NCBI GenBank assembly: GCA_030668875.1 | Contig: DAOVER010000056.1 | Coordinates: forward strand, 1-18,582 | Reading direction: 5' to 3' | Length of the DNA stretch: 18,582 bases | Source: Candidatus Heimdallarchaeota archaeon | GTDB lineage: Archaea; Asgardarchaeota; Heimdallarchaeia; Heimdallarchaeales; Heimdallarchaeaceae | In this document: one piece after another, positions 1 to 16,735 of the stretch | Layout: the number at the start of each line of letters is the position of its first letter | Numbering within the stretch: position 1 is the first letter of the stretch | Translations under genes and position numbers: made by a program | The notes under the pieces: model-generated | The model's input: only the letters and a program-made list of their open reading frames with translations | Databases searched by the model: none | What the model was told of the DNA's origin: nothing

Positions 1-704
1 AAACCTGTATGTGAACAATACCTTGTGAAGTTAGATATTAGCAAAATTAAAAGTAAATTGAGCAAATAAGTATATCTACAGCTGTTTCTTAATCCATTCA
101 AAAGGTAATTCCTGAACTTCATCGGGGGTTGATACGCAAACGTAAAGCTCGAGACACTTTTGGATTCTGTAAGTTGCAAGGAGAGCTCAATAGAGTCTAT
201 ACTCGTCGCATGAGACTCATTCGCGAGCTTACCCTTCTCCTTCCACCCTTTCTTGCTGCAGTCATGGTGAAGAAACAGTGTAAGACCTTGAAGATTGAAC
301 AATTAACTGTTGACCCCTCAGGTACTAAAGGGGCTTTAGCTAAAGCTATTTACACTATGCCCGATAGTCTCTTCATCTATCAGAAAGCTGTCTGGTTAGC
401 TTCTCAAGAGTTAGGTTATCAAGTATTATTAGAGTCTGTTCGTCCTTACCACACCAGTACTATTCATTATGGTTGTGGGGGGACACTCGTTCGCAACCAA
501 GGTCAGTATGATCATGCTCCTTGCACCAAATGTGGGCGAAAAGTTAACACTCATACTAATGCTGCGCACAACATTGCTTCTCTCCCTGGTACACTTCTTC
601 CTTCCTTCTGATTCTCTTCCCCTCAACGCACGTGAGGGGACCCACCTAAACGACGGTTAGACCGCCTCTGGCAAGTTTAACCAAGTTTCATAACGTGCGT
701 TTGG
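1..704 (+). mobile_element. 3' part of a TnpB-encoding insertion sequence (IS607-like or IS200/IS605-like); left part lies outside the window; right end most likely TTGG at 701-704, alternative TTCA at 687-690
   Basis: tnpB-like ORF followed by a structured non-coding tail. Sampled 60-nt lines at 181-300 are about 43-50% GC versus about 30% at 721-780. A start-less host reading frame runs on immediately downstream. Confidence 0.75.
129..611 (+). CDS. tnpB: TnpB-like RNA-guided endonuclease, C-terminal portion (bridge-helix region, RuvC-II, Zn finger, RuvC-III); frame is open from 93; probably a 5'-disrupted pseudogene
   Basis: LKIEQL matches the RuvC-II 'ivvEdL' motif (Glu codon 297-299). 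VRPYHTS-x2-HYGCGG...PCTKCG...VNTHTNAAHNIA matches the TnpB pattern 'v.p.yTS..C..CG...C..CG...D.NAA.NI'. There is no RuvC-I/WED/REC in this ORF, an in-frame TAA at 90-92, and only a TTG start. Confidence 0.8.
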   Translation: MIRKRKARDTFGFCKLQGELNRVYTRRMRLIRELTLLLPPFLAAVMVKKQCKTLKIEQLTVDPSGTKGALAKAIYTMPDSLFIYQKAVWLASQELGYQVLLESVRPYHTSTIHYGCGGTLVRNQGQYDHAPCTKCGRKVNTHTNAAHNIASLPGTLLPSF

Positions 705-724
705 TATGTTGCTATTGATTATAC
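612..724 (+). ncRNA. Putative TnpB omega-RNA (reRNA): scaffold about 618-704 plus a flanking-DNA-derived guide about 705-724; the true 5' end may lie inside tnpB
   Basis: Perfect 8-bp stem TCCCCTCA (618-625) / TGAGGGGA (633-640). AACGCACGT (625-633, spanning the loop) is the exact reverse complement of ACGTGCGTT (693-701). The position just 3' of tnpB is where omega-RNAs are encoded. Confidence 0.6.
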
Positions 725-1127
725 TTCAATTGATGTTGATTTAGTTCTTTGGTACCCTGAATTTGGTTCTTATATACAAGATCAAACACCGAATTTTGAT
801 TGGGAAGATATTCCTGGTACAACAGGCTATTTGCTCCAAGTTTCAAATTCTTCAGGATTTACTAATTTAATAGTTAATGAATCACTAATATTTCATGTAT
901 CAAATTATACCATTACAGAACCCTTAGTTTATGGCGAAGAGTATTTCTGGCAAGTTGCATATTATATCGATTTCAATACGATTAGTCATTTCTATGGCTA
1001 CAGCTCATTCACAATTGGTGAAGAACCTGTTGTGCCAGAATTTGGTAATGTAGCTTATGTGATTCTTTCCCTAACAATGGTTTCAATTTCAATTGTTTTG
1101 ATGGTGAAAAGACATCGTAAAATCTGA
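705..1127 (+). pseudogene. 3' remnant of a PEF-CTERM cell-surface protein gene with an FN3/Ig-like domain, apparently interrupted by the IS
   Basis: The frame is stop-free from 681 to 1127 with no ATG until the TM segment. It reads YVAIDYTSIDVDLVLWYPEFGSYIQDQTPNFDWEDIPGTTGYLLQVS...YFWQV, an FN3-like 'P.F.W....Y.lqv...YyWqV' pattern. It ends VVPEF + hydrophobic helix + KRHRKI. There is no signal peptide, and the TTG at 831 falls inside the domain. Confidence 0.75.
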
Positions 1128-1143
1128 TAATACCTAAATGAAA

Positions 1144-1174
1144 TTTTTTCTTTTTTCCTTTTTCCCTTGTTTTA
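1144..1174 (+). terminator. Archaeal-type T-tract terminator
   Basis: TTTTTTCTTTTTTCCTTTTTCCCTTGTTTT shortly after the stop at 1127. Confidence 0.55.
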
Positions 1175-1229
1175 CCAAAGGATAAAAATTACTCTATGGT
1201 TACTTTTTTAGGTTTTTCTCACTATTGTT

Positions 1230-1244
1230 GTAAAAGTTTATAAA
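1230..1244 (+). promoter_or_regulatory. BRE/TATA promoter for the 1274 gene (likely leaderless)
   Basis: GTAAAAG followed by TTTATAAA (1237-1244), about 30 bp upstream of the ATG at 1274. Confidence 0.55.
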
Positions 1245-1273
1245 CACTTAAAGATTCGAAATATTAGTTTAAA

Positions 1274-2971
1274 ATGACTACCTCTGAAACAGACTCTGAA
1301 GCAATAATTCAACAAAGAAAAAGATTTCAAGCCTTAGGAAGTGCAATTAATAAAGCCGATGGGATGTCAAGCTGGCTTAGGGTATTAATGGCTGTTACAT
1401 TGATTTTTGGGATACCTACTGTAGCACTACTAGCTGATCCTGCTAAAGATTCAACTATCATAATGTTTGAAATTATAGCTTTTACTTTCAGAATTCTTAT
1501 TATTGCAATGATTTTGTACCTAATTTCTAAGATTACTCGAGCAATTTATACTGCTAGTAATGATTTTGACAAAAAAATTGAGGAAATAGGTTTCAAAGTT
1601 GAAAACACTAACACATTAGAAGAGAAGAAATTGATGAACAACAAAATCATTTATACAATAATAAGTGTAATAGTCATTCTAGCTTCATTTATTGGAATAT
1701 TCATGGTTGGTTCACGTTTTGAAGCAACATATATAATAGGACAGTTAATTGTTTACATCATTATTGTTGTGTGCTTAGGACTCACATTCAAGTTTTGGTA
1801 TGGGAAAAATTCTGAAGAATCGTTAAGAATGGGTGGAAGAAAAATTATTAAAGTATTCATGCCCATCTTCTTCTTTCTAGCGGTTGAAATTGTAATTGAT
1901 TTCTTTAGTATTCTTGGCGAACCCCGATTTAGAATTAATGCTTTACAACTATCTTGGGGTATAATATACCCATTTCTATTTCTGTTCCTCTTGATAGCCA
2001 TCTTAGTCACAACTAAAAAAACACAAAGAGAAAAACTCTCTTTACAAGAAGCAAAAGTTGCAGATTTCAAAAGAAGGAAGGTACATATTCAAAATAAAAA
2101 TAAAATCAAGCAAGCGTTCTTTAGTATAAAAGTATCTTGGAACAAATTAACTAAATCAACTGATCCTAGTGATACTGCCAGAAAAGAGAAGCTCGATAGG
2201 AAACCTAGTAAAGTGCTTGTTCATAGTATCTGGATTTCTTTGTTTGTTACAGTTATACCTTTTGCTCTTATAGCTCCTTGGAGTTTGTTCCCCCATGATG
2301 GTCTGTTAATTATTGCATCATTACTGATATCATATCAATATTCAATGATAAAATATGAGAGATATGAAATAGATGTGATTTCTGAACCTAAAAAGGATGA
2401 ATCACTCGAACCTACCGAAATACGACAACCTGCAATGATAAATAATGCAGTAATAATGCTTCTACTACCAACTATTGTTTTCATAACCATACAGTATCTC
2501 ATAAGTGGAGTAATAATTGGTGAAACTCTAACGAAAAGCACAGAGATGGTGATTATAGGATTCACATGGATAGTAGCTCTAATAGCACTACCAGTATCAT
2601 ATCAGCTTTTCTATAAAATTAAGCAAAATACAGATATCAATCGTTCTGAAGAAAATATTTCAATGTATAGAAGGGGTCTTGTTCAGATTTTAATTCTCGA
2701 AATTACTTTGATAGTATGCTCTCTGGCAGGACACTTCACTGCTTCAATCTTTGTGAGTTATGACTATATACAATGGTTTGCTATGGGACTTCAACTCACT
2801 TTTGTTGTTGCTTTGATTATTTTACCATTAATATTCTTGTATGTTGTTCCTAAATTATCAGACAAAGGATACAAAATTGCAGCGATTTCTGCAGTAGTTA
2901 TTATCACAGTTATTAATGTGGCAATATTAACACTATTTTTTGCGAATATAATAATAGGGTATTTCTTATAA
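1274..2971 (+). CDS. Hypothetical polytopic membrane protein (about 13 TM helices, large basic central loop)
   Basis: 565-aa ORF with about 6 hydrophobic segments, a Lys/Arg-rich loop and about 7 more hydrophobic segments; no family motif recognised. Confidence 0.85.
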   Translation: MTTSETDSEAIIQQRKRFQALGSAINKADGMSSWLRVLMAVTLIFGIPTVALLADPAKDSTIIMFEIIAFTFRILIIAMILYLISKITRAIYTASNDFDKKIEEIGFKVENTNTLEEKKLMNNKIIYTIISVIVILASFIGIFMVGSRFEATYIIGQLIVYIIIVVCLGLTFKFWYGKNSEESLRMGGRKIIKVFMPIFFFLAVEIVIDFFSILGEPRFRINALQLSWGIIYPFLFLFLLIAILVTTKKTQREKLSLQEAKVADFKRRKVHIQNKNKIKQAFFSIKVSWNKLTKSTDPSDTARKEKLDRKPSKVLVHSIWISLFVTVIPFALIAPWSLFPHDGLLIIASLLISYQYSMIKYERYEIDVISEPKKDESLEPTEIRQPAMINNAVIMLLLPTIVFITIQYLISGVIIGETLTKSTEMVIIGFTWIVALIALPVSYQLFYKIKQNTDINRSEENISMYRRGLVQILILEITLIVCSLAGHFTASIFVSYDYIQWFAMGLQLTFVVALIILPLIFLYVVPKLSDKGYKIAAISAVVIITVINVAILTLFFANIIIGYFL

Positions 2972-2981
2972 TCCCCTTTTC

Positions 2982-3959
2982 TTATTTTTCACTTAATTTA
3001 ATGAAATGACTTGCTTTTTTTTCCAGTTCACTTTTTTCAGAGTTAGCATAGTAGTAGAATAATCCATTCTTATTTGTTACACCTGCCACATTTCCTCTAT
3101 TATCCATTGTAAGAATATGAATAACACCTTCCTCTTTGATTTTCTTCAAATCAAGAACACCATACTCTGCAGCTCTTTCAGGTGTCATGTTGTTTTCAAC
3201 TCGGTCCACTACCATTCTTGCTGTTGATAGCCTTAGAGTTATCTCTCCCGTTCCAGTACATGCTGCTCCTGCTTTCTCTGAACAATAAACACCTGCACCA
3301 AAAATTGGTGAATCTCCAACTCGACCAGGAAATTTCATGGCTAATCCAGATGTCGAAACACCCGCTGCCAAATTCCCTTCTGAATCTAATGCAATTACAT
3401 TTGTAGTGCCTTGTTTATCAAAACTCAACTTTTTATACCATTCCATGATAGGATAATTTTCCATCACTTCTTTCAGGTGGACATCAAAATTCATAAAAAG
3501 TTCCCGAACAAGCTTTTGAGCTTCAGCAGGCATTTCTAGACTTCTTCCTTCCATGATATTATGATAGTTCTTCATGCCAAGTTCATCGATAATTTCCTCT
3601 TCTATGAAACCCAAAGCTTTTGCGAAACGTTCAGCTCCTTCTCCAACTAAGAACGCATGAGGTGTTAAATCCATAACTTTGCGAGCTATTGAAATCGGAT
3701 GCCGGTAGTTTTTTACTGCAGCTACAGCTCCAGCTTTCCTTGTTTTACCATCCATGATAGAAGCGTCTAACTCTACTATTCCCATCAAGTTTGGAAAACC
3801 ATTAAAACCAACAGTAATATCATACTTGTTATTTTCTATTAACTTTATACTCTCTTCTACAGCGTCTAAAGCAGATCCACCTTTAGACAAAATCTGTAAT
3901 CCAGTAGGCAAACCCACATTACTATTCCGCGTACCAACAATGGCATACTCTAGTTTCAT
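2982..3959 (-). CDS. Isoaspartyl peptidase/L-asparaginase or N4-(beta-GlcNAc)-asparaginase family protein (Asparaginase_2, Ntn hydrolase)
   Basis: GGSALDAVE, ELDASIMDG, GTTNVIALD (nucleophile Thr), STSG, PGRVGDSP and TGTGE motifs. Confidence 0.92.
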   Translation of the reverse strand: MKLEYAIVGTRNSNVGLPTGLQILSKGGSALDAVEESIKLIENNKYDITVGFNGFPNLMGIVELDASIMDGKTRKAGAVAAVKNYRHPISIARKVMDLTPHAFLVGEGAERFAKALGFIEEEIIDELGMKNYHNIMEGRSLEMPAEAQKLVRELFMNFDVHLKEVMENYPIMEWYKKLSFDKQGTTNVIALDSEGNLAAGVSTSGLAMKFPGRVGDSPIFGAGVYCSEKAGAACTGTGEITLRLSTARMVVDRVENNMTPERAAEYGVLDLKKIKEEGVIHILTMDNRGNVAGVTNKNGLFYYYANSEKSELEKKASHFIKLSEK

Positions 3960-4010
3960 TGAATGTAGAAAAGATTTCTAACATAAAAAAATACCTCATC
4001 ATACATTCTA

Positions 4011-4025
4011 AGAAAAAATTAAATA
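4011..4025 (+). promoter_or_regulatory. BRE/TATA promoter for the EamA gene
   Basis: AGAAAAA then ATTAAATA (4018-4025), about 31 bp upstream of the ATG at 4056. Confidence 0.4.
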
Positions 4026-4055
4026 GATGTCTCGAATTGAAATTTGGTTAGTAAG

Positions 4056-5057
4056 ATGGAAAAGACCAAATTAATAGGGTATATCTCAGCTATTCTTGGA
4101 GGTTTGTCTTTTGGTACTATACCCATTTTTTCAGCAAATTTAAGAGATTTGGGAGCTTCTAGTTTGGAGCAATCGATCTTGAGGTTGTTTTTTGCATTCA
4201 TAGCAGGACTAGTCATAATCTTACTATTCCTACCGATCAATACAAAGATGGTTAGACAAAGCGTAAAATTTTCAGGGCAAAGAGGATATATGCTACAAGG
4301 ATTAATTCTAGCAATAATGATAATTCTATATCTCTCTTCAATAGCTGTAGGCACACCAGCTGGTGAAGCGGCGCTTTTAATTCAAGTGCATCCATTTGTT
4401 ACATTATTACTAGGTTGGTTATTGTTTAAAGAAAAAATCACAAAATCTAAAATAATCGCTCTTAGTTTTGCATTAAGTGGTTTAATTATTCTTGTACATC
4501 CTTGGGATGTGCCATCATTCCTTTCTTCAATTATAGGTGATGCTCTTGTTTTGTTATTGGGAGTACTTTATGCAGGGTATATTATGATTAATAGATGGAA
4601 TAATAAAAATGTAGAAGGCGTCTCATTTCTTATATCAGTATCATGGATTTTAATTTGGACTTTTTTGATGGGTTTGCCATTATTATCTATCATGAAACAG
4701 TTCAATTTACCTCCGGAAATAGTAAACTTTTCCTTCGAAAACATATTAACACCTCAGATCCTACTGATGGGGATTTTGTTAGCTGTTGTTGGTGGTTTAT
4801 TCCCTTATGGTTTTATCATGTTGGCATCAAGGTATCTTGAAGCTTCAAGAGCTTCGATTTTACTACTATCTGAACCCATTGGAGCTATGATTCTAGGATC
4901 TATTTTTCTTGGAGAAACAATCACCCTCTGGTACATATTAGGAGGAGTTGCACTACTAACTGCAGTTGTTATAACCATTTTATCAAAAACAAAAAATGAG
5001 GTAATATCAGTAGAAAATGTGACAGATGAGCTTGTAGAAAAAAATACGAAAACATAA
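4056..5057 (+). CDS. EamA/DMT-family transporter
   Basis: About 10 TM helices in two EamA repeats (PFVTLLLGWLLFKEKIT; LLSEPIGAMILGSIFLGETIT). The ATG at 4056 is preferred over the TTG at 4044. Confidence 0.9.
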   Translation: MEKTKLIGYISAILGGLSFGTIPIFSANLRDLGASSLEQSILRLFFAFIAGLVIILLFLPINTKMVRQSVKFSGQRGYMLQGLILAIMIILYLSSIAVGTPAGEAALLIQVHPFVTLLLGWLLFKEKITKSKIIALSFALSGLIILVHPWDVPSFLSSIIGDALVLLLGVLYAGYIMINRWNNKNVEGVSFLISVSWILIWTFLMGLPLLSIMKQFNLPPEIVNFSFENILTPQILLMGILLAVVGGLFPYGFIMLASRYLEASRASILLLSEPIGAMILGSIFLGETITLWYILGGVALLTAVVITILSKTKNEVISVENVTDELVEKNTKT

Positions 5058-5090
5058 TTTTAATAACTTAACTGAACAAGCATACACAGA

Positions 5091-5870
5091 ATGTCTGAAT
5101 TTATGGTGAAAACAGTAAACTTGTCAAAGGATTTCAAAATGACAAGAGCTGTTGATAGAGTGAATATTCGGGTTCCTAAAAAGTCTATCTATGCACTTCT
5201 GGGGCCAAATGGTGCTGGCAAAACAACATCAATAAGGATGATATTAGGTTTGCTAAAACCATCGGCAGGAGAAGTATATGTTAATGGATTTAATGTCTCT
5301 GCGAATCCAAAATCAATTAGAGGTCAGATTGGTCTATTACCACAGTTTTCAGCTGCATATTATGATTTGACACCTATTCAAAATATCAAATTCATACTGG
5401 AATTAAATGATTTAGCGTATGAGGATGTAAGTGTGAAAATAAGCGACTATTTTGAAAAATTAGACATAAAGCCAGGATTGCTTCAAAAACCATTTACAAA
5501 ACTATCTGGGGGAGAGCAAAGAGCGATTTCTTTTATCATGGCAGCAATAACTGATAAAGAGTTTTTAATTCTAGATGAACCTACAAGTGGTCTTGATATT
5601 GCTCGAGCAAAATACATTCGCTCTATAATAAAAGATCTTGTTGAAAAAGAAGGAAAAACGATTTTATTATCTTCGCATATCGTTTCAGATCTTGAAGAAC
5701 TAGCAGAATACTGTGGTATCCTAAAAGAAGGTAATTTGGTTTTCCAAGGGGACAAGGAAGAGATAGTTAATACTTATTCACCAGAATCCAAAGATTTTGA
5801 AGATGCAATAGTTAATGCCTTCCAAGCTCCTGTAACTAGCAAATCAATCTCTTCAGAGGTGTTAAAATGA
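5091..5870 (+). CDS. ABC transporter ATP-binding protein (ABC-2/exporter type)
   Basis: Walker A GPNGAGKTT, signature LSGGEQR, Walker B LILDEP, H-loop SSH. Confidence 0.95.
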   Translation: MSEFMVKTVNLSKDFKMTRAVDRVNIRVPKKSIYALLGPNGAGKTTSIRMILGLLKPSAGEVYVNGFNVSANPKSIRGQIGLLPQFSAAYYDLTPIQNIKFILELNDLAYEDVSVKISDYFEKLDIKPGLLQKPFTKLSGGEQRAISFIMAAITDKEFLILDEPTSGLDIARAKYIRSIIKDLVEKEGKTILLSSHIVSDLEELAEYCGILKEGNLVFQGDKEEIVNTYSPESKDFEDAIVNAFQAPVTSKSISSEVLK

Positions 5871-7069
5871 AGGAGGACAAACTTAAATTATATCAGCTTA
5901 AAGCTCTTCTCAAAAAGGATATCTCATTATTATTTCGAAAGAAAATAGCAATCTTTATCTTTGGAGGACCTTTCATACTAATGTTTATACTCATTGGGCT
6001 ACCTGCTTTATTTACTTCTCAAGATGCTCTTATTCTTCTAGTTCACACTGAAGATATTGGGTATTTAGATTCAAATATTGGTGATTCAATTGTTGGTAAC
6101 ATCTCTTCATATTTTGAATCAGATGAAACCATTGAAGTGCAGGTTACTGATAATCTCACCGAGGTTTTGTACACCCAAGAATTAGGTTATTATATCCCAA
6201 ATAATTTCTCTGAACTTGTTTTTACGGGAATACCTGTCACATTCACTATAGATGCAACATTATCACCCTATCTTTCATCAACCTTTGAAGTTATACAAGC
6301 AATAGCTAATAATGTGATGGTTACATATCTTGCAAATAGAACAATACCTACACTTCAAAACTATGAACTTCCTCCAGTTTCTTTGCCAGAGGAACAGCTC
6401 CTTGGACCTAAAGCAGCTGCAATTGCAATGCCATTAAGCTACATGATATTTTTACTAATTGCTCTAAATTCTGGGTCATATACCCTTATAGGTTTTGCAA
6501 GAGAAAAACGTATGCGAACAATGGAGATTCTATTGTCATATACTCACAATCATAGTTTTCTCGTAATCTCCAAGGTTATAACTGGTTTAGTTGCATCTCT
6601 AGGATCAACCTTATCCTATGTTCTAGGTATACTAGTAGGAACCCAGTTGTCTGGAAATGATACAAGTGGTCTGTTACTTATATTTGGGTTAAACCTAGAT
6701 AGTTTGGGTGCTGGAGATATAATAATTAGTTTAATTTTTGTAGTATTAGCTCTACTTATTTCCACACTCATAACAATGGCAGTCGATTGCAATCTAACTC
6801 GAGAAGCATCAGAAAGAATCAGTCCTCTAATATCAATAGGGTTAGCGATGTTCTTCTATTTCGTAGTTCTGATGAATCCTTTTGCAACTTCTTCAGCGCT
6901 CCTAGTTAATCCATTTTATTGGTGTTATAGATTGGCTCTTCTTCTGATTGCAAGAGTATTCAGCATGGAAATATTTCTCTACTTTTCATTGATAGTAGGG
7001 CTAATTGTTATCTTGATTTTCTTTGCTACTAGAGGTATTCAAAAGGAAAAGAGTTTATACCTTGAGTAA
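5867..7069 (+). CDS. ABC-2-type permease (NatB-like)
   Basis: TM1, an extracellular domain, then about 5 TMs; AREKRMRTMEILLS motif; ATGA overlap with the ATPase gene. Confidence 0.88.
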   Translation: MKEDKLKLYQLKALLKKDISLLFRKKIAIFIFGGPFILMFILIGLPALFTSQDALILLVHTEDIGYLDSNIGDSIVGNISSYFESDETIEVQVTDNLTEVLYTQELGYYIPNNFSELVFTGIPVTFTIDATLSPYLSSTFEVIQAIANNVMVTYLANRTIPTLQNYELPPVSLPEEQLLGPKAAAIAMPLSYMIFLLIALNSGSYTLIGFAREKRMRTMEILLSYTHNHSFLVISKVITGLVASLGSTLSYVLGILVGTQLSGNDTSGLLLIFGLNLDSLGAGDIIISLIFVVLALLISTLITMAVDCNLTREASERISPLISIGLAMFFYFVVLMNPFATSSALLVNPFYWCYRLALLLIARVFSMEIFLYFSLIVGLIVILIFFATRGIQKEKSLYLE

Positions 7070-7094
7070 GAAATACTATTTCTCTCTTTTATTT

Positions 7095-7982
7095 TCAATT
7101 ATTTTCTATACCAAATATGAATTTTTTCATTTTCTTAGCAGTTTCTCGACTGTGAGTTTCCTGAAAATTAATTAGATTCTCAAAAATAGCATTAGGGATT
7201 TTTTTAGAGATTTCAACACTTTGTTCATATGAATGTATTTTATCATTAGATGCTGCGAAAATATATACTGGAAATTGGAAATCTGAATAGTTAACATCAG
7301 ATTGATAATCAATTATTTCTAAAACACACGCTTTCATTCTTTTAGGAATTCCTGTCTCTAGATTTCTTTTATTTAGATAATACGTTCCAGAATCATTTTT
7401 CATATCTGTTCTAAAATGTTTTAACATAAATTTTAGAAAAGGTAGCATGGGATAATATAACCATGCAGGAGCAAACTTAAACAAAACTTTCATCCAACCT
7501 GAAAAACTAAAAGTTTCTGCTGGGCTGATTAAAATCATCCCCTTTGGTGCAGTATAACCTGCTTTCATATACAAAGCTCCGATTTCTGCACCAAATGAAT
7601 CACCAAAAATATAGAACCCATCCTTGTTCAAATTATAATGCTCAATTATTATATTAAGATCTTTAACAAAGGCATCAAAACTGTAATCAACCCCCTTGTT
7701 AAAATGTCTCGCAGTGTTTTTTTCTCTAGTTTCAATGTGGTAAATATTAGCTATTTTAGACAGTTCATGATCAGAGCTTAACCATCCTATAAAATGAGAA
7801 CACAACCCAGGAATTACTATTACATTAATCTTGCTCCCCTTTTGTTCACTTGGGATTTTGAAAATTCTTAACAGGATTCCTTCTTCTACTTTAACATAAT
7901 CAATTTCAAGCCATGGAAAAATTGAGTAATCTACTTCGTTGATATTGGCCAACTGCAAATTATCCATTTTTTCTTCAAGCAT
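7095..7982 (-). CDS. Alpha/beta-fold hydrolase (esterase/lipase-like); the ORF is open to 8060 but the ATG at 7982 (or 7967) is the likelier start
   Basis: VIPGL oxyanion region, nucleophile elbow GDSFG, candidate acid in ASNDKIH, late His in QETHS; TATA-like box about 25-30 bp upstream of 7982. Confidence 0.85.
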   Translation of the reverse strand: MLEEKMDNLQLANINEVDYSIFPWLEIDYVKVEEGILLRIFKIPSEQKGSKINVIVIPGLCSHFIGWLSSDHELSKIANIYHIETREKNTARHFNKGVDYSFDAFVKDLNIIIEHYNLNKDGFYIFGDSFGAEIGALYMKAGYTAPKGMILISPAETFSFSGWMKVLFKFAPAWLYYPMLPFLKFMLKHFRTDMKNDSGTYYLNKRNLETGIPKRMKACVLEIIDYQSDVNYSDFQFPVYIFAASNDKIHSYEQSVEISKKIPNAIFENLINFQETHSRETAKKMKKFIFGIENN

Positions 7983-8005
7983 TATGATTTTACTAATGCT
8001 TACAT

Positions 8006-8015
8006 TATTTATAAG
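8006..8015 (-). promoter_or_regulatory. TATA-like box for the alpha/beta hydrolase
   Basis: Minus strand reads CTTATAAATA, 24-33 bp upstream of the ATG at 7982. Confidence 0.45.
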
Positions 8016-8072
8016 ACTTGCAGTTAAGTGGGTAACATACGAAGGGAGAACCACCCTCAATTAGAGGAAGCA

Positions 8073-8540
8073 TTAGATAAGTAAGAAATCAATTACAGCT
8101 GTTATAATCTGTATTATAAGTATTAGACCAATTATGTAGAGATATTGTCTCCTGTAAGTTGGTAGTTCATTAATTGTTAAATCTGAAATTTCTTGAGGTT
8201 CTGATTTCTTTCTGAAACTAGTTGCAAACACTACTAATATCACTGTAAAACCAAAATAAACAGCAGTCAAGATATACTCTCCTGTTTCGATCTCTCGTCC
8301 TTGGACCCCTCGTAAAATGAATATCCATATATTAAAAACCACTGCAGAAATAAAGAAAGAGAAACCAATTGTTAAAGGATAAACATACATTTTTTTCTGT
8401 TCTTCCCAATATGAAACAACATCATTCTTGCAAGTAGGACATTTTAGTTGCTTTTGAACAGATTCCTTATTTGTAAGTTGCAGAAAAGAAACCTGTTTTT
8501 CACATATTTTACAATACTGTCTTCTTTGTAAAAACTTCAT
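8073..8540 (-). CDS. Hypothetical protein: N-terminal Zn ribbon (CxxC...CxxC) plus about 3 TM helices
   Basis: CKIC-x18-CPTC then three hydrophobic segments; ATGA overlap with the upstream MFS gene. Confidence 0.75.
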   Translation of the reverse strand: MKFLQRRQYCKICEKQVSFLQLTNKESVQKQLKCPTCKNDVVSYWEEQKKMYVYPLTIGFSFFISAVVFNIWIFILRGVQGREIETGEYILTAVYFGFTVILVVFATSFRKKSEPQEISDLTINELPTYRRQYLYIIGLILIIQIITAVIDFLLI

Positions 8541-9931
8541 AGAGGCTGTTCATTATCTGGCAATTTAACCTTTTCGACGTCATTTTCTTCTTTTTCTCCT
8601 TTCTTCTTCTTCTCATTAATTGATAATATTAATGTAGGAATAACTGCTAGAAGTCTGACTGAAGCAATAATTAGAAAAGATATTTTCAGAGCAAAAGCTG
8701 TACCATTGCTGTTTAGAAAAATGTTATACAAAAACCCTCCAACAAATGCTGAATCAGCGATATTTAGAAAACCATTATGCATGAACACTCCAACAAATGC
8801 TGGATCAGTGAGAAAACTTTCATACAAGAACCCTCCTACAAATGCACCAAAGAAGGAAACAATTCCTGTCACCAAATTATACGCACCTGAATAAGCACCT
8901 TTAGTGTCCTCCTTGGACAAATGAAGAATTTCAGAACTAAGGGCAACAGTCAATAATCCATTCCCAAAACCTCCAAACAAATTTGCTATCAAAATAGTCT
9001 CCCAAGTAACAGTGTATGCGAAAACAATGGGGACAAGACAAAACGACATGAAACTAATAACTAATGTAAATCTTCTCCCGATTTTATCGGCAATCATTCC
9101 ACTTATCCATTGTCCTAGTGTAATAAATACTGCAAATACTACAGACATTATTGCTAACTGTGTATTAGTTGGATTTACACTAGCAGTAATAATTGGTGCT
9201 AATGGCCAAAGAAAACTCATCGCGAACCACCAAATTAAGGTTGTGCCTGAGAATATCTTAAATTTCTTATCCCTCATTGGTTCCCAGAATGATGATTTTT
9301 TCACTTTTCCTTTTTTAGAATTTGTTTCAGATATCAACATGGATAGAATTGCAGCTACAGCAAAGAATAATGCACCGATTAGAATCATAACTCGATATTT
9401 TTTCAATAGATCAAAGGGCAAGAAATCTGTTAAAAACCCTAACAGTAATAAAATCATTGATGAGACAAATGAACCGATCATACTAATCTGGCTGATTATT
9501 TTTGTTCTCGTTTTTTCTGTTGAAACATCACCTAAGAGAGCATTCCATGTAGGAATAACCATACTCATGCCTAGTGAATATATTGCAATCACTATCATGT
9601 AAATAATTGGTGATGTCAATTGCGATATCACCACTGTTGTTATGGATGCAATTATGAATCCTATAATCAGAACAACTTTTCTACCAATTTTATCTGATAA
9701 CTTTCCAAAAAACGTTTGTAGTAATGCTGAACCTAGTGTCTGTATTGCAGTAATGAAAGACATCATTAAAGCTGTTGCTCCAATACCAACAGCAAGAACA
9801 GTAGCATAGTTGAAATAAAAGTTCACTCCTCCACTATTTGCAATAGCCAAGGCTCTTATGATGATTTTTTGTTTCAATGTCGCTGGCTTTGAATTTTCAG
9901 GTTCTTCATTAGCTTGTTTCAAGAGCGTCAT
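8537..9931 (-). CDS. Major facilitator superfamily transporter
   Basis: MFS motif A GKLSDKIGRK and its C-half copy GMIADKIGRR; about 12 TM segments. Confidence 0.93.
   Translation of the reverse strand: MTLLKQANEEPENSKPATLKQKIIIRALAIANSGGVNFYFNYATVLAVGIGATALMMSFITAIQTLGSALLQTFFGKLSDKIGRKVVLIIGFIIASITTVVISQLTSPIIYMIVIAIYSLGMSMVIPTWNALLGDVSTEKTRTKIISQISMIGSFVSSMILLLLGFLTDFLPFDLLKKYRVMILIGALFFAVAAILSMLISETNSKKGKVKKSSFWEPMRDKKFKIFSGTTLIWWFAMSFLWPLAPIITASVNPTNTQLAIMSVVFAVFITLGQWISGMIADKIGRRFTLVISFMSFCLVPIVFAYTVTWETILIANLFGGFGNGLLTVALSSEILHLSKEDTKGAYSGAYNLVTGIVSFFGAFVGGFLYESFLTDPAFVGVFMHNGFLNIADSAFVGGFLYNIFLNSNGTAFALKISFLIIASVRLLAVIPTLILSINEKKKKGEKEENDVEKVKLPDNEQPL
8712..8848. repeat. Imperfect tandem triplication (51- and 45-bp periods) inside the MFS coding sequence
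   Basis: CCAACAAATGCTG at 8739 and 8790, CCTACAAATGC at 8835, TTTAGAAAA at 8712 and 8763. The protein reads AFVGGFLYESFL / AFVGVFMHNGFL / AFVGGFLYNIFL. Confidence 0.85.
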
Positions 9932-9992
9932 TGGTCATTCATTGTTTTCGTTTAAAAATATGCTTTATCTGGCTAAAGCTCAACTTTGCTAT

Positions 9993-10040
9993 AAATTAAC
10001 AGTATGTATAAAATCAACAGCATTTAACCAAATTAACAGT
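9993..10040. promoter_or_regulatory. Three direct repeats AAATYAACAG in the divergent MFS / surface-protein promoter region; candidate operator
   Basis: AAATTAACAG 9993-10002, AAATCAACAG 10011-10020, AAATTAACAG 10030-10039. Confidence 0.45.
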
Positions 10041-10113
10041 GCTTACAGAAACTTTAAAAATGTTCTTCCTTCATCGATGATTAAATAAGTCAGCTACTTG
10101 AGGTTATAAATTT

Positions 10114-12750
10114 ATGAAATTTTCAAAAAAATGGCAAAATCTATTCTTAGCTGTAATTGTTATTGGTTTGTTCAGTGTCAACACCCTTCTAAGTGCTGAA
10201 AGCAACTTGAAATTTGACCCACCAGTTGCTGGTCAGTGGGTAATTAGTGATCAACAAACCATTGATAATGAGAACGTTATTATCAACGGTTCAATTTTTA
10301 TTGAATCTACAGGTGAATTATCAATAATTGATTCAACTGTCACCTTTGCTGTTAACGAAACATTTATCCTAGATATAAGCGTTTTTGGTTCTCTAATTGT
10401 AGAGAACAGTACTCTAACAGTTTCAAATACTCTTTACAATTTTACGGTAACAGCAGTACAAGGTTCGGTATCCATCACCGACAGCGTGATTAATTATCTA
10501 ATGTTTTCAAGTGACGAAACAGATATACAGATAGCGAATAGTGAATTTAATTTTTACAAACAATTTGATTTAAGCGATTCCCCATATGTTTCTATTGTCG
10601 GAACCGACTTCCTTTCTGGAGAAGCAATTTTCACTTCTGATGGAGCGGACAATATAGATCTTATCGGAAATACAATAGATGAAAAAGGATTTGAAATATT
10701 TAGCGCAGTTAATGCTACAGTAGAATACAACACTTTCTCCTTGCATACTGATTTTGCATTATATATCGATAATGGACAAAATGTGATCATCTCTCACAAC
10801 ACTTTCACAAATTCATTATCAGGATTAAAAGTTGAAGGAGTAGATGCATTAGTTTTCAATAATACTTTTGATGATTTGGAAACAGCAATAATGCTTTATG
10901 TTGCACATCATAGTATAATTACGGAAAATGTTTTTACTATTGTATCTGACATTTGTATTGACATAGATAATTCAGATTTATTGATTATTGAGAAAAATCA
11001 ATTTAATAATAGTGCTCAAGCTATCTATGGATATAGATCTACAGTAACAATAGATGATAACATCTTCTTTAATCTCGAGTATGGTATCCAATTATTATTT
11101 GCTGATTACTCAATCATAAGTAGTAATAATCTGACTGATATTGCAGAAACTGGATTAAAGCTTTCTAATACACGCAATTCGGAAATTTCAGATAATTCTT
11201 TCATGAATATTACCTCTGCTGCAAGCATTGAAACCTGTAGAGCCGGTCTTATTGAAGGTAATGATTTCTATAAAGTTCAAGAAGGAATAAGTGTTATCTC
11301 TTCAAGAGAAATTGAAATACTAGCTAATATCGTTGAAGATACAATTACTGGTATTTACCTCGAACAAACAAAGGATACTGTTCTGACTGCTAATGGAGCA
11401 ATCAACGCTGTATATGGAATATCATTATGGTCTATGAACAATGTGATTCTATCAAGCAATGGTGTTTTTGACTCTACCTACGGTATAAGTGTATGGTTCT
11501 CTGAAGGTGTTCAATTACTTGGTAACCAAGTCAATACATCCGACATTGGTATTGTAGCAAGAAACACAATCTCTCTTCTAATTAAGAATGGTGATTATAG
11601 TTCTCTTAACTATGGATTACAAATCCTAGCTTGTGAGAACGCAATAATATTCGGAAATACATTTGACCTAATTGTTTTAGATGCGATTTATCTAAAATCT
11701 AGTAATGGTTTCAAAGTTTATTATAATAACTTCTTTACCGTTGGAAATTATGGGACAATTGAAAGTTGTATTGGAAGGTTTGATTACGATTTAACAAATG
11801 TAACTGTTGTAGGTAACTATTATGATGGAATCACCGCTGATGAGGTATTGATTGATACAGTAATTATAGACTTATTATCATTTGATATTATTGATCATGC
11901 TCCATTGGACAGAGCCTATATTGTTAAACCAACGATAGAATTCGTTTCTAGAGATATTGAAGAACCTGATGACACAGTTGATGTTACTGTAAGTACACAA
12001 GTTTTCGTTCCTTCTGGAGTTGACGTTACAGTTTATCTAGATTACTCCCTCAATGAAGATTCTGATTGGACTTCTATTGATGTTACTGCATCAGAAGAAC
12101 CTATCGGTTCGATTGGTGCTATTAATTTATATGAAGGAACTATCCCTGCACAGTTGTATGACTATCTTGTAACATACAGAATTCGAATTGAATATGTTGA
12201 TGGACTTGATACTATTGAAATGCTATCTGAAAATAATACTTATACAGTATTAACCTCTCTCGAGACACCTATTATCATCTGTGAACCAGAAGTCTTTACT
12301 ACAATATTAGATGATAATGACGTTGAAACAAATGTTCCAACACAAACCTTCTTTGATGAATACGAATATTTCATTCAAGTACGAATTCTCAATAGAACTG
12401 ATTTCGAAATTATTGATGGTAGAAGACATGTCAATTTGACTTGGACAATATTCGATTCAACAGATAATTCAAGTGAGAGCTTTACAGCCTTTATGTTCTA
12501 CAATTCATCCACTGATGTCTATTCCTACGAATTCAAAACAATTTTTGATATAGGTATTGAAATAGATTATTTCATACTAGCAGTAGACGTAAATGGAACA
12601 ATTCATAGAACAGTAAGTAACTATACAATAACAATAGAGTCTATCACAGATGCAGGATTTGATGCAATAACTCTGTTGAGTATAGGTGGAACTCTTTTAC
12701 TAATTCAGGCAATTGTTGTCATTAGACGAAGACGAAAACGAGAAGAATAA
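10114..12750 (+). CDS. Large cell-surface glycoprotein with right-handed parallel beta-helix (NosD/CASH, PbH1-like) repeats, C-terminal Ig-like beta domains and a membrane anchor
   Basis: N-terminal signal peptide; repeated roughly 22-aa 'GI.l..s.n..i..N.f' units; many N-x-S/T sequons; ends DAGF + TM helix + RRRRKREE. Confidence 0.9.
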   Translation: MKFSKKWQNLFLAVIVIGLFSVNTLLSAESNLKFDPPVAGQWVISDQQTIDNENVIINGSIFIESTGELSIIDSTVTFAVNETFILDISVFGSLIVENSTLTVSNTLYNFTVTAVQGSVSITDSVINYLMFSSDETDIQIANSEFNFYKQFDLSDSPYVSIVGTDFLSGEAIFTSDGADNIDLIGNTIDEKGFEIFSAVNATVEYNTFSLHTDFALYIDNGQNVIISHNTFTNSLSGLKVEGVDALVFNNTFDDLETAIMLYVAHHSIITENVFTIVSDICIDIDNSDLLIIEKNQFNNSAQAIYGYRSTVTIDDNIFFNLEYGIQLLFADYSIISSNNLTDIAETGLKLSNTRNSEISDNSFMNITSAASIETCRAGLIEGNDFYKVQEGISVISSREIEILANIVEDTITGIYLEQTKDTVLTANGAINAVYGISLWSMNNVILSSNGVFDSTYGISVWFSEGVQLLGNQVNTSDIGIVARNTISLLIKNGDYSSLNYGLQILACENAIIFGNTFDLIVLDAIYLKSSNGFKVYYNNFFTVGNYGTIESCIGRFDYDLTNVTVVGNYYDGITADEVLIDTVIIDLLSFDIIDHAPLDRAYIVKPTIEFVSRDIEEPDDTVDVTVSTQVFVPSGVDVTVYLDYSLNEDSDWTSIDVTASEEPIGSIGAINLYEGTIPAQLYDYLVTYRIRIEYVDGLDTIEMLSENNTYTVLTSLETPIIICEPEVFTTILDDNDVETNVPTQTFFDEYEYFIQVRILNRTDFEIIDGRRHVNLTWTIFDSTDNSSESFTAFMFYNSSTDVYSYEFKTIFDIGIEIDYFILAVDVNGTIHRTVSNYTITIESITDAGFDAITLLSIGGTLLLIQAIVVIRRRRKREE

Positions 12751-12778
12751 CTTTCTTTCTCTATTTTTTCATTTTTTA
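12751..12778 (+). terminator. T-tract terminator
   Basis: CTTTCTTTCTCTATTTTTTCATTTTTTA directly after the stop codon. Confidence 0.55.
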
Positions 12779-12852
12779 CTAATTTCTAGTTTTTCCTGTT
12801 TGCTCAAATGACAACATAAATAAGTAATCGAAAGTTTGTGATTTTGACATTT

Positions 12853-13590
12853 ATGCATGGACTACCTAGAGGAAAACGAAAAGTCTTCAGAAAAGAAAAT
12901 ATTATCCAACAAATTATTCTAGGATTCCTTATTCTAGCAGGTGCTATTTTCGCATTTACTTACGATAATGCCTTTCTTAAGGTAGCTGCAGGGATAATTT
13001 TGGCAATTGTTTCTGTTGTGATTCTTTCCTATTATATGATTGAATTTTTCACAGGTAGAGGTTATGCTATTGCAAGTGCTATCAATGAAGCATTATATTT
13101 GGTCCTAGGTATTCCTATATTGGTTATAGCTGCAGGTTTTTTACCCATTAGTTTCTACGTAGCATTTTTTCCAGAAGATAGCACTGAAATTGTTAAAATA
13201 TTAATTTTCATTACTATGGGGCTTCTCGAGTTTTTTGCAATTGCATATCTCATCAAACGTTATCTTAGAGAGAGAAAAATGAACTTAAGACAATATTTCA
13301 AATATATGTTTGACTTCGATGCTCGAGCTAAAGACCAAAAAAGATTCAAAGAAAGAGCAGACGAAATTGATCACTTCTACAATGATTTAAGTAAAGTAAG
13401 TGACAAACTTGCTAAGCAGAGGGAAGAGCGAGCGATGGGTTTCGCGGAATTTGATTTCAGGGAAAGAACTACTCAATTAGGTCTACGAAAAGTTAAAGAG
13501 ATTAAGTGTTGGAATTGTCAAGCAATTAATGAAAAAGATTCCGTTTTTTGCACTACTTGTAGTGCTCCTCTGAGAAAAGAGCAACAATAA
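12853..13590 (+). CDS. Membrane protein (about 4 TM) with a C-terminal double zinc ribbon
   Basis: Four hydrophobic segments, a charged helical tail and CWNCQAINEKDSVFCTTCSAPL. The ATG at 12853 is preferred over the GTG at 12838. Confidence 0.82.
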   Translation: MHGLPRGKRKVFRKENIIQQIILGFLILAGAIFAFTYDNAFLKVAAGIILAIVSVVILSYYMIEFFTGRGYAIASAINEALYLVLGIPILVIAAGFLPISFYVAFFPEDSTEIVKILIFITMGLLEFFAIAYLIKRYLRERKMNLRQYFKYMFDFDARAKDQKRFKERADEIDHFYNDLSKVSDKLAKQREERAMGFAEFDFRERTTQLGLRKVKEIKCWNCQAINEKDSVFCTTCSAPLRKEQQ

Positions 13591-13652
13591 AACTTATTTG
13601 CCAATACATATTCTTTAAGAATACCCCTTAAACATTTACGAGGCTACTGAAG

Positions 13653-14324
13653 GTGAATTCTAAAGATCTCAATTCAAGCTTGCTCATTATCTTCGATTTT
13701 GATGGTGTTTTGGCTAATTCTAAGGGCGCTTATGCAGCTCAGATGAAGGAAACTATTGAAAGCATATCCAAGAAGACTTTTTCCAAGAAAATGTTCAGTG
13801 AGAGAGTTGGAAATACTGACCAAAAGGATGATTTCAGATTTTTCCTGGAAACTGAAGATAGAAAGGTAATAATGGAAGCTGTAAAGAAGTATGAAGAACT
13901 CACACCCAAATATGCTCACCTTCGATCTCTCTATCCAGGTATAAGAAGAATCATAGAATCTTTACATAATGCTCACTATACTGGAATTGTATCTAGAAAA
14001 CCACAAGATAGAATGGAATATTGGTTGAATTTCTATGATATACAAGACCATTTTGATTACCCGATAGGTACTGTAGAAAATACAAAAAGTCATGCAATTA
14101 GACGAATAATGTCCCATTACGGTTTTTCTAATGATAGGACAATAATGATTGGTGATACGGAATTCGATATTCAGAGTGCAAAAGAAGCTGGTGTGATCTC
14201 GGTTGCTGCTACCTATGGTTCAAGTAATCTAGATGATTTATTAAAACTAAAACCAGATTTTGTTCTTAATGAACCTGATGAGATTGAAGTTATAGTTGAC
14301 AAAGTAATGAAAAATTATTCCTAA
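13653..14324 (+). CDS. HAD-superfamily hydrolase (phosphoglycolate phosphatase-like)
   Basis: Motif I FDFDGVL, motif II VSR, motif III Lys (TKSHAI), motif IV IGDTEFD. Confidence 0.92.
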   Translation: MNSKDLNSSLLIIFDFDGVLANSKGAYAAQMKETIESISKKTFSKKMFSERVGNTDQKDDFRFFLETEDRKVIMEAVKKYEELTPKYAHLRSLYPGIRRIIESLHNAHYTGIVSRKPQDRMEYWLNFYDIQDHFDYPIGTVENTKSHAIRRIMSHYGFSNDRTIMIGDTEFDIQSAKEAGVISVAATYGSSNLDDLLKLKPDFVLNEPDEIEVIVDKVMKNYS

Positions 14325-14368
14325 AACGATTGCATATATTTTAAATATATTGAGAGTTTAACACAGCT

Positions 14369-15169
14369 ATGAAAATTGGTTTTCTTCAGTTCAAACCCCT
14401 TTTTGGTCAAGTTGAGGACAATCTAGATAAATTATCTTCAATGATTGAAAAAGCTCCATATTTTGACTTACTGGTTTTACCCGAGCTAGCAAATTCTGGA
14501 TATGTTTTTTCAAATAAGGATGAGTTAGGGAAAGCAAGTGAAACAATACCTAGTGGTTTATTCGTAGAAAAATTATCCGAGATTACAAATTCGAGAAATT
14601 CAGCTATTGTTTGTGGAATCTGTGAAAGAAAAGGAGTGAATTATTACAATTCTTCTGTTCTTATTGGTCCAAAGGGGTTTATTGGAAAATATCAAAAAAT
14701 ACACCTGTTCGATAGAGAAAAATTGTTCTTTCAACCTGGAAATGGACCTTTAAAATCCTTTGAAGTTAATGGAATGAAAATAGGTATGCTAGTTTGCTTT
14801 GATTGGATATTTCCAGAAGCGACTAGGGTGTTAGCTTTAGAAGGCATAGACATTTTAGCTCATTCTGCAAATTTAGTATTACCTTATAGTCAAACAGCTA
14901 TGTTAGCACGATCAATAGAAAATAGTATCTTTACAGTAACTTCTAATCGAATAGGTACTGAAGAAAATGGTGGAATTGAGTTGACATTTACTGGACAGAG
15001 TCAAATCACATCTCCTAAGATGGAATTGTTAGCTAGTGCTGGAGTGGACACTGAAGAAATCAAAATTGTTGAAATTGACATAGAACTCGCTCGCAATAAA
15101 TGGCTCAATGAAAGAAATAATGTCTTATTAGATAGAAGGAGTGCAATGTATACAAAACTTGCAGAGTAA
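14369..15169 (+). CDS. Nitrilase-superfamily carbon-nitrogen hydrolase
   Basis: Catalytic Glu-Lys-Cys triad in LVLPEL, YQKIHLF and VCFDWIFPE. Confidence 0.93.
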   Translation: MKIGFLQFKPLFGQVEDNLDKLSSMIEKAPYFDLLVLPELANSGYVFSNKDELGKASETIPSGLFVEKLSEITNSRNSAIVCGICERKGVNYYNSSVLIGPKGFIGKYQKIHLFDREKLFFQPGNGPLKSFEVNGMKIGMLVCFDWIFPEATRVLALEGIDILAHSANLVLPYSQTAMLARSIENSIFTVTSNRIGTEENGGIELTFTGQSQITSPKMELLASAGVDTEEIKIVEIDIELARNKWLNERNNVLLDRRSAMYTKLAE

Positions 15170-15236
15170 TACAAATTTAACTAGATGATTTGTTAAAAAA
15201 GAGTTTTAAATTGAGTGTTTTAAGGAATTATAACAA

Positions 15237-16136
15237 ATGAATTCTAATCAACCAAAAAGAAAGAATGGTTATGTTCCTCACAAAGCTGCAGCTGAATTCA
15301 AACCAACATATGACTGGTCAAATGCTGAAGCTGAGAAGATGTTTTTAGAACGAGAATTTTCTTTTGAAGTTGATAAGGTATTTTTTGATGATTGTGTTCA
15401 AGAATTAAGAAAATTACCCCCTGAAAGTATTGATATGATTGTAGCTGATCCCCCTTTTGGACTTAATTTTGGGGAAATGGAAGTTCTTTACAATCGTAAT
15501 AGCGATTTAGTTGCAAAAGGATATCAAGATGTTGAAATAAATGACTATTCTTCCTTTTGTAAAAACTGGATTAAGGAACTCCCCCGAGTTCTAAAGGAAG
15601 ATGCCGGTGTATGGATATTTAGTGGTTGGACTAATTTAGTTAATATTCTTAATGCTCTTAAAGAAAGTAATCTAAAACTAATAAATGACATTGTTTGGAA
15701 ATACCAATTTGGTGTTTTCACTAAAAGGAAGTTTGTTACTAGTCATTATCACATTCTTTTTGCAGTAAAAGATGAGAAGAAATACTTCTTTAACAAAGTA
15801 GAACACTATCCTTTAGATGTATGGGAAATAAACAGAGGTTATCAAAGAGGTAAAAAGAAAAATGCAACTAAACTTCCGATGCAAGTTGTTCAGCGTTGTA
15901 TAGACTTTGGTAGTGAGCCCGGTGATTTAATACTTGATCCTTTCATGGGAAATGGAACAACAGCTGTAGCATCTCTTGGTTCTTATCGTCACTTCTTGGG
16001 ATATGAAATTAACCATTCATTAAATGAAATTATTGCTCAAAACATCTTAGACATAACACTTGGCCAAGATTATAAGCAATACAGTAAACGACCAGATGAA
16101 TTAGTAGAAAAAGCAAGAAAAAAATTTAAAAAATAA
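15237..16136 (+). CDS. Site-specific DNA methyltransferase, N6-A/N4-C, beta class; no adjacent restriction enzyme
   Basis: Catalytic motif IV DPPF precedes SAM-binding motif I LDPFMGNGTT; DIVW and SHYHILF conserved blocks. Confidence 0.9.
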   Translation: MNSNQPKRKNGYVPHKAAAEFKPTYDWSNAEAEKMFLEREFSFEVDKVFFDDCVQELRKLPPESIDMIVADPPFGLNFGEMEVLYNRNSDLVAKGYQDVEINDYSSFCKNWIKELPRVLKEDAGVWIFSGWTNLVNILNALKESNLKLINDIVWKYQFGVFTKRKFVTSHYHILFAVKDEKKYFFNKVEHYPLDVWEINRGYQRGKKKNATKLPMQVVQRCIDFGSEPGDLILDPFMGNGTTAVASLGSYRHFLGYEINHSLNEIIAQNILDITLGQDYKQYSKRPDELVEKARKKFKK

Positions 16137-16147
16137 CTGTTAAAAAT

Positions 16148-16735
16148 TCATTTGTCTTTAGTTCTAATTAAGATACTCATCTCAAAAATGAAGAACACAT
16201 ATGTAGCTAAACCAATGCATCCAGCTCCAATAATCAGCTGGTATGGAATAAAAAACCATCCTAAAAATGAGAGAGCTAAAAATAATGATTCTATTATGAT
16301 TATTACTTTACTATTCCAGTATTTTTTCAGAAAGAAGAGTTTACTTTTTTCTTCTAGATTTTGCTCTTTCAGGATACCTAAATAGATTTTTCGAAACTTT
16401 TGCAAAGGTAAAAGAGGAAGCCCCCAATCGAGTAAATCAAACAAAAGGTGCCAGATTCCTCCTAGACAGAAAGCAAGAAAATAATCAAAGAACTCTACAG
16501 TGGAATACCGGAGAATTAAGAAAATAATTGACAAGAAGGTCCAAAACAATAAGGAGTGGAAAATGTAAAAACGATGGTTTTTTTCTTTGAGAAATGATGA
16601 AAAGAAAGTATCCAGATCAATTAGTACACTACTTACTAAGAAAATGATACCTAGTACCCATGGAAATTCAGGAATACTAAGGTAAATTATTCCCAAGAGA
16701 AACATAGAACTATGGAAATGGGTTGTTGGACGCAT
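16148..16735 (-). CDS. Membrane-bound metal-dependent hydrolase (YdjM-like)
   Basis: MRPTTH...IDLD...HRFYIFHSL...WHLLFD...GLPLL His/Asp pattern with intervening TM helices. Confidence 0.8.
   Translation of the reverse strand: MRPTTHFHSSMFLLGIIYLSIPEFPWVLGIIFLVSSVLIDLDTFFSSFLKEKNHRFYIFHSLLFWTFLSIIFLILRYSTVEFFDYFLAFCLGGIWHLLFDLLDWGLPLLPLQKFRKIYLGILKEQNLEEKSKLFFLKKYWNSKVIIIIESLFLALSFLGWFFIPYQLIIGAGCIGLATYVFFIFEMSILIRTKDK

Follow-up and report, generated by a model that had tools for sequence, protein, structure and literature searches.

A probable pseudoknotted TnpB guide-RNA scaffold at the right end of an IS607-type element from Heimdallarchaeota

Introduction

The closest described counterparts of the locus reported here are transposable elements whose TnpB proteins work with a guide RNA. 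In ISXfa1, an IS607 element of Xylella fastidiosa, a pseudoknot in the guide RNA (the reRNA) is required for activity, and the U-130A change is rescued by A-3U (PMC10711439). In CboIStron of Clostridium botulinum the serine transposase, TnpA(Ser), excises the element as a circle and rejoins the TAM with the target; the TAM, TGGG, ends in the GG of the core, and the scaffold ends in UCGG, a near-copy that has to escape self-cleavage (bioRxiv 10.1101/2023.11.20.567912). The omega-RNA of ISDra2 contains a pseudoknot in which positions -6 to -2 pair with a distant 5′ segment and which is stacked on stem 1, and pseudoknots of this type are conserved across Cas12 guide RNAs (PMC10097598). As for the protein, there are other TnpB branches, RIIIr-4 for example, with a conserved replacement of the RuvC-III Asp by His (PMC10691335). 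For ISXfa1 and CboIStron, both of them bacterial IS607 elements, the general design discussed below is already on record.

The Heimdallarchaeia are the archaeal group nearest to eukaryotes. The DNA analysed here, which we refer to as the window, is a stretch of 18,582 nucleotides from a Candidatus Heimdallarchaeota archaeon (GenBank assembly GCA_030668875.1, contig DAOVER010000056.1, positions 1 to 18,582, forward strand); it is the start of contig C76 of the genome that we searched (3.23 Mb, 99 contigs, 33.8% G+C, 92% complete). Window positions 615–700 are very probably both the right end (RE) of an IS607-type element and the pseudoknotted 3′ scaffold of the guide RNA of a TnpB-like protein. 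By analogy with the systems above, this RNA would be produced and bound by TnpB, and cleavage may be the work of the TnpB-like protein, even though its RuvC-III residue is His and not Asp.

The locus and ISXfa1 are alike in being serine-recombinase elements with a guide RNA at the right end and an apical-loop pseudoknot ∼3 nt before the guide, and in having a fixed junction nucleotide that is part of the scaffold rather than of the guide (PMC10711439). They differ in that ISXfa1 has a GG core and a GGG-type TAM whereas the Heimdall element has a shared CGT and the target ACCGT, and in that the latter, whose host is an Asgard archaeon, encodes a protein of 635 aa that has His at RuvC-III and a long N-terminal helical region; we found no RNA sequence or Rfam similarity to the ISXfa1 reRNA. 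The counterparts of the CboIStron TAM and scaffold end are here the TAM-like ACCGT and UGCGU, with a core that is not GG, and the window has no Rfam hit to a group I intron like that of CboIStron. With ISDra2 the locus shares the placement of the pseudoknot and the protein fold (8h1j), but ISDra2 has a Y1 transposase, single-strand transposition, a TTGAT TAM and an end at the cleavage site, where the element described here has a serine recombinase and a shared junction motif. RIIIr-4 is described as being without a zinc finger and linked to RHH/MazE (PMC10691335); the Heimdall TnpB family, as far as a comparison by description goes, is unlike it in that an H/C-C-C finger is kept and the gene lies in a mobile IS607 element.

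The analysis defines a TnpB guide RNA from the Heimdallarchaeia to the base, with its end at 700, a predicted guide from 701, the target ACCGT and a pseudoknot of 6 bp. With these components it would be possible to test a large His-variant TnpB directly, through TAM depletion and guide reprogramming, and the family provides a natural example of a junction motif, a target motif and a guide-RNA pseudoknot changing together.

Results and Discussion

The copy in the window

The left part of the window is organized as follows:

Positions 1–98 (no strand assigned): unique sequence at the start of the contig, not homologous to the transposon and with stop codons in all three plus-strand frames.
Positions 99–611, plus strand: 3′ remnant of tnpB, placed by tblastn of P0003 and the ORF list, with an open frame at 129–611.
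Positions 615–700, plus strand: putative core of the omega-RNA (reRNA) scaffold and right end of the element, from 26 genome copies.
Positions 701–720, plus strand: predicted guide segment, TTGGTATGTTGCTATTGATT, which is the host DNA directly following the insertion.
Positions 701–1127, plus strand: 3′ part of a split host gene whose orthologue in G010:C169 is uninterrupted.

As judged from its sequence, the window carries a defective copy of the element with an intact guide-RNA end. It can be aligned with the intact copy (C48:36122-38849) from window 99–102 onward, and positions 102–608 correspond to residues 467–635 of P0003, the TnpB-like protein of that copy, with 88% identity (tblastn); these are the last 169 codons, and they retain the RuvC-II Glu, the HxxC...CxxC zinc finger and the RuvC-III motif NTHTNAAHNIA. 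The unique sequence of window 1–98 stands where the first two thirds of tnpB should be. Neither the rest of the genome nor the fetched loci contain a match to bases 1–110, and the closest relative copy (G021:C209) aligns just from window 111. With most of tnpB lost, an RNA from the window could work only with protein from another copy, such as that at C48.

There is a considerable chance, if one short of even, that the window copy is an inert relic, a locus without RNA or function in which the scaffold is kept only because the insertion was recent. The loss of tnpB residues 1–466, their replacement by unrelated sequence containing stop codons and the absence from the window of the tnpB promoter of intact copies are all as expected of such a remnant. 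The hairpin, pseudoknot and end are nonetheless intact here, an intact TnpB is encoded at C48, and derivatives that have these 86 nt but no genes have multiplied. Moreover, the matter concerns the window copy only and leaves the identity of the sequence untouched.

Copies of the element and the position of its end

The genome contains 26 copies of the 3′ ∼86 nt. The 86 nt at 615–700 are common to TnpB-bearing, TnpA-only and gene-less copies of ∼401 nt, and in all of the TnpB-bearing copies a conserved non-coding segment of 89 nt (612–700) lies directly 3′ of the stop codon (609–611). All 26 copies are homologous through ...ACGTGCGT (window 700) and diverge immediately after it, with T in 13 copies, A in nine, G in two and C in two. 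Matches were found in 23 of the 30 genomes of the family, this genome included, and nearly all of them end at the same base.

An earlier reading of the window from its sequence alone (the sequence-only reading) had argued against TTCA (687–690) as the end of the scaffold, and the copies agree, showing no divergence at about 690 and sharing sequence as far as 700. The same reading had put the right end at a GG within TTGG (701–704) and the start of the guide after it, at 705; both of these must be moved, since the element ends at 700 in CGT and 701–704 are host nucleotides that differ from copy to copy, the GG at 703–704 being host gene sequence of this one insertion. Going by the copy alignment, the guide starts at 701 (TTGGTATGTTGC...), the first variable base in all copies, and the segment 701–720 is unique in the genome. 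A guide of 16–20 nt would be expected from other TnpBs.

The copies are of several structural types. Those that bear TnpB sequences are the intact copy in C48 (C48:36122-38849), in which tnpA is followed by the ORF for the TnpB-like protein (635 aa) and then by the RE, together with C87, C37 and fragments. In C15 (30712-31483) a 772-nt derivative has kept tnpA alone, tnpB being deleted, so that the scaffold lies directly 3′ of the recombinase gene. The gene-less element of ∼401 nt, for example G000:C95:100420-100820, is represented by at least 13 left ends (LEs), including those at contig breaks in C3, C11, C15, C19, C37, C39, C43, C44, C47, C81, C84 and C85; many contigs break 141 nt into this element, which looks like an assembly k-mer effect. 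It is composed of an LE, a TTTATATA box resembling the box upstream of tnpB in C48, a hairpin-rich RNA segment of ∼170 nt and the same 86-nt RE, and its stems show compensatory differences between two subfamilies when read by eye. The smallest form is an 83-nt mini-element (C88:71839-71921, minus strand; L026:1502-1584) with ∼46 nt of LE, 37 nt of RE and no hairpin, inserted at ACCGT within a coding gene.

Within the right end we also note a repeated motif:

Positions 672–678 and 682–688, plus strand: CAAGTTT, a direct repeat that hardly varies among 64 copies.

These repeats are mirrored by AAWCTT motifs in the LE, an inverted counterpart, and are candidate binding sites for TnpA; the ends of IS607-family elements have been described with short repeated motifs of this kind (PMC6188088).

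A hairpin loop that pairs directly ahead of the guide

The structured part of the right end consists of three features:

Positions 618–640, plus strand: hairpin with stem 618–625/633–640 and loop 626–632, read directly and with pairing assessed over 64 distinct copies.
Positions 627–632, plus strand: 5′ strand of the pseudoknot, loop bases CGCACG, pairing with 694–699 according to covariation and RNAalifold.
Positions 694–699, plus strand: 3′ strand of the pseudoknot, CGTGCG, at positions -7 to -2 before the guide.

Direct reading of the window confirms an observation made at the outset, that of an 8-bp stem whose entire loop pairs with 694–700: the arms 618–625 (TCCCCTCA) and 633–640 (TGAGGGGA) are perfect reverse complements, and the loop ACGCACG (626–632) is exactly complementary to CGTGCGT (694–700). 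The proposed extension to a 9-nt complement (625–633 with 693–701) is not meaningful, as A625 and T633 pair together in the stem and T701 is the variable base outside the element. This combination of stem and loop complement is the sole instance in the 18.6-kb window when both strands are scanned. Among 5000 dinucleotide-preserving shuffles of the region 561–760 none had an 8-bp perfect stem with a whole 5–9-nt loop complementary to sequence no more than 120 nt downstream, while 45 of the 5000 gave such a feature with the stem requirement lowered to 5 bp.

The conservation of these pairings was examined by counting the named pairs in an alignment (A1) of 64 distinct right ends, drawn from 23 relatives in two genera as well as from this genome. 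The inner seven pairs of the stem (619–625 with 633–639) are paired in 98.7% of cells with two compensatory changes, and the outermost pair, T618-A640, in just 79%. The loop is paired with the 3′ strand in 92% of cells. Loop position 2 with -2 is CG in 53 copies, UA in four, UG in three and AU in one, and loop position 3 with -3 is GC in 53, GU in five and AU in four; compensatory changes thus affect two pairs and nine cells. The terminal pair A626-T700 is lost from 25 of the 64 copies, and the conserved helix is therefore one of 6 bp (627–632 with 694–699) and not 7. RNAalifold, which cannot draw pseudoknots, chose the same long-range helix unaided, sliding the partner strand by 1–3 columns lowers pairing to 24–63%, and in 500 shuffles the covariation score and the count of double changes always stayed below the observed values.

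Most of the pseudoknot columns are simply conserved, and the compensatory changes come from few clades and at least three events, so the raw statistics overstate independence and the support, although good, is below what the raw counts suggest. TnpB homologues of 44–62% identity from other metagenomes also end in ...CGTGCGT, and their loops remain complementary to that end, in one case through a G·U and in another with a bulge. The pseudoknotted omega-RNA scaffold with loop pairing just 5′ of the guide, as originally proposed, is thus supported by covariation. A small internal hairpin proposed at the same time (CGGT-TAG-ACCG, 654–664) is present in the window copy but is not conserved, with 62% of cells paired and one pair broken in 45 of the 64 sequences. 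Searches with Rfam 15 of positions 1–1500 (E up to 10) and of the whole window (gathering scores) returned only noise, with no omega-RNA or RAGATH family among the matches.

There is a slim chance that the hairpin and the complementary sequence downstream function at the DNA level rather than as an RNA pseudoknot, perhaps as a structured site at the right end that is recognized by the transposase. The 3′ strand does have to serve as DNA, as 694–700 overlaps the recombination core and its last bases covary with the left junction (see below), and the neighbouring CAAGTTT repeats resemble protein binding sites. Serine recombinases use duplex DNA, however, with no hairpin required, and the changes in the loop follow those in the 3′ strand over a distance of about 60 nt. 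Ten pseudoknot cells are G·U, which would be A·C mismatches on the minus strand and poor in DNA; because these cells fit the plus strand only, the pseudoknot belongs to the plus-strand RNA. In addition, the pairing of loop to 3′ end in ISXfa1 has been functionally proven as RNA (PMC10711439).

Slimmer still is the chance that the match to the loop is coincidental and that the true partner of the 3′ strand is GCGCAC (564–569), inside the tnpB frame. The helix of 564–569 with 695–700 appears in the single-sequence MFE fold of 500–700, and gene-less copies likewise have GCGCAC upstream. The hexamer is nonetheless not kept in relatives with an unchanged 3′ strand, which have gctgcccaa, gcagctatc or gcagctcga in its place, whereas the hairpin loop covaries with that strand.

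Between the pseudoknot strands RNAalifold offers, as an alternative to the internal hairpin, a weak GUUA/UGGC helix (656–659 with 669–672), which shows one-sided changes only. Seven copies from G040 and G041, in the second genus (L074-L078, L080 and L081), have a 15-nt insertion directly 3′ of the hairpin that forms a GNRA-capped stem (GGGUGAAACCC), and L082 carries a different one at this position, which suggests a point at which expansion of the RNA is tolerated. The loci of the 44–62% homologues are L096, L098 and L099 (on the contigs of P0112, P0117 and P0094), where no adjoining tnpA gene was called; in L096 the hairpin is traversed by the reading frame of the homologue.

The transposase and the family of the element

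In C48 and C87 the TnpB-like gene is immediately preceded by an ORF with a resolvase domain, and C15 has another such ORF. The C48 TnpA is a 196-aa protein with a MerR domain (PF00376) at residues 4–41 and a Resolvase domain (PF00239) at 62–190, and it scores 163.8 bits against the NCBIfam model of the IS607 transposase, NF033518 (cut-off 110). A Y1 transposase (PF01797) was not found in the genome, which is 92% complete. The full copies thus carry an IS607 serine-recombinase TnpA, in line with the IS607-like affiliation given by the sequence-only reading, which had named serine recombinase versus Y1 as the check to make.

Other attributes of the IS607 family are also present. The serine recombinase of the C48 copy has an N-terminal MerR-like HTH, tnpB is downstream of tnpA in the same element (C48:36122-38849), and at two independent loci there is no target duplication and the crossover occurs at a short shared motif. 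The exception is the GG core dinucleotide of IS607, ISXfa1 and CboIStron, no GG being conserved at either junction. The alternative of an IS200/IS605-type (Y1) right end at TTCA, with 691–700 as host DNA, draws on the resemblance of TTCA to IS605-type cleavage motifs and the frequent association of TnpB genes with IS605-type elements, and it is effectively refuted by the copy alignment, in which homology continues 10 nt beyond TTCA in all 26 copies, as well as by empty sites that put the junction at 700 and by a transposase that is of the IS607 and not the Y1 (HUH) type.

The target site and the junction motif

One further feature is needed to describe the junctions:

Positions 698–700, plus strand: CGT, found at the left as well as the right junction and enclosing the recombination core; the element's final base is 700.

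The left ends in this genome all begin with ACCGT, and no conserved motif was found to the left of it in at least 13 left flanks. Two empty sites are available. The first is in a relative, G021 (C238), at the orthologue of the locus of the 83-nt mini-element, and reads flank-ACCGT-flank where the occupied site reads flank-ACCGT...(78 nt)...GCGT-flank. The second corresponds to the insertion in the window itself: the gene that continues at 701 is uninterrupted in G010 (C169), and its 5′ part, together with the left end of the element, is at the end of contig C40 (110565-110705), where the left end reads ACCGTAGTCAACTG... and is followed by the start of tnpA. The flank upstream of the site in the G010:C169 orthologue matches C40:109970-110558, and a colinear protein results only if all 5 nt of ACCGT are kept (STSP-T-VWY versus STSP-V-VWY). 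From these two empty sites we conclude that the target is ACCGT and that CGT is common to both junctions. The crossover accordingly lies inside CGT, at CG or GT, and not at GG, which had been the recombination core assumed before the copies were compared.

The relatives show how this motif varies. Nine lineages with a right end of ...GCGT have left ends of (A/C)CCGT. In four relatives the elements are without tnpA, and no left end turned up at the spacing of a tnpA-bearing element. In lineages where the right end is ...GTGTGT, with C changed to T at -3, the loop is ACACACG, with G changed to A, and in all three of the TGT cases with a left end found the LE is ACTGT, in different flanks. The joint change at -3, in the loop and in the LE ties the same base to the junction motif, the target motif and the RNA fold, and on sequence grounds these TGT/ACTGT lineages favour a 2-bp core that includes position -3. 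A subfamily with the right end ...GTGCAT (L050/L105 in G011:C4 and L090/L106 in G023:C2) has a compensating loop, (A/T)TGCACG, and the LE ACTGT, in one clear case and one that is less certain; its junction ends, TGT versus CAT, mismatch and fit neither a CG nor a GT core.

In the explanation that we prefer, the RNA would fold into the hairpin at 618–640, whose loop bases 627–632 would pair with 694–699 directly before the guide, and transcription would run on into host DNA, with 701 to about 720 as the guide. The serine recombinase TnpA would insert the element at ACCGT, with crossover inside the CGT of both junctions, and after excision the donor would read ACCGT followed by the match to the guide, that is, a TAM and target for TnpB and its omega-RNA, by analogy with CboIStron and ISXfa1.

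A more speculative extension, which we regard as unlikely though worth stating, is that position 698 (-3) is triply constrained, as part of the junction or crossover trinucleotide, as the third base of the ACCGT target or TAM, and as a member of a pseudoknot pair. Site choice by the transposase, the TAM of the nuclease and the fold of the guide RNA would then co-evolve as one unit, in a clade of His-variant TnpB that maybe does not cut like standard TnpB.

The TnpB-like protein

The TnpB-like proteins are ∼635–650 aa in length, P0003 being encoded by C48:36853-38757. The named sources of their homologues are almost all Heimdallarchaeota or Heimdallarchaeaceae, with one subsurface-metagenome record. 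Profile matches are weak overall: PF07282 scores 27.4 bits in P0002 (cut-off 26.3) and 24.8 in P0003, and the guided_TnpB profile scores 17 bits. An AlphaFold model of P0003 (pLDDT 86.6, pTM 0.71, from a 50-sequence alignment) has its best Foldseek matches in CnCas12f1, ISFba1 TnpB, ISDra2 TnpB and Fanzor2, the hits 8hr5, 8iaz, 8h1j and 9b0l having E-values from 4e-9 to 2e-4.

On the predicted model the protein has the RuvC fold with a zinc-finger (TNB) insertion of TnpB and Cas12 proteins, the zinc finger of P0003 being H588/C591...C607/C610. In place of a D-E-D triad it has D433-E532-H617. H617 aligns with the RuvC-III Asp of CnCas12f1 and is invariant, as are the other two residues of the triad, in alignment A3 (P0003 and 49 homologues, 50 sequences in all, down to 42% identity); with His at RuvC-III, nuclease activity is not assured. 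P0003 also has a helical N-terminal region of ∼300 aa that is not found in TnpBs of 400 aa. Finally, a distant paralogue is encoded in the same genome (G000:C95:34089-35831), with 39% identity over residues 40–626 of the TnpB-like protein.
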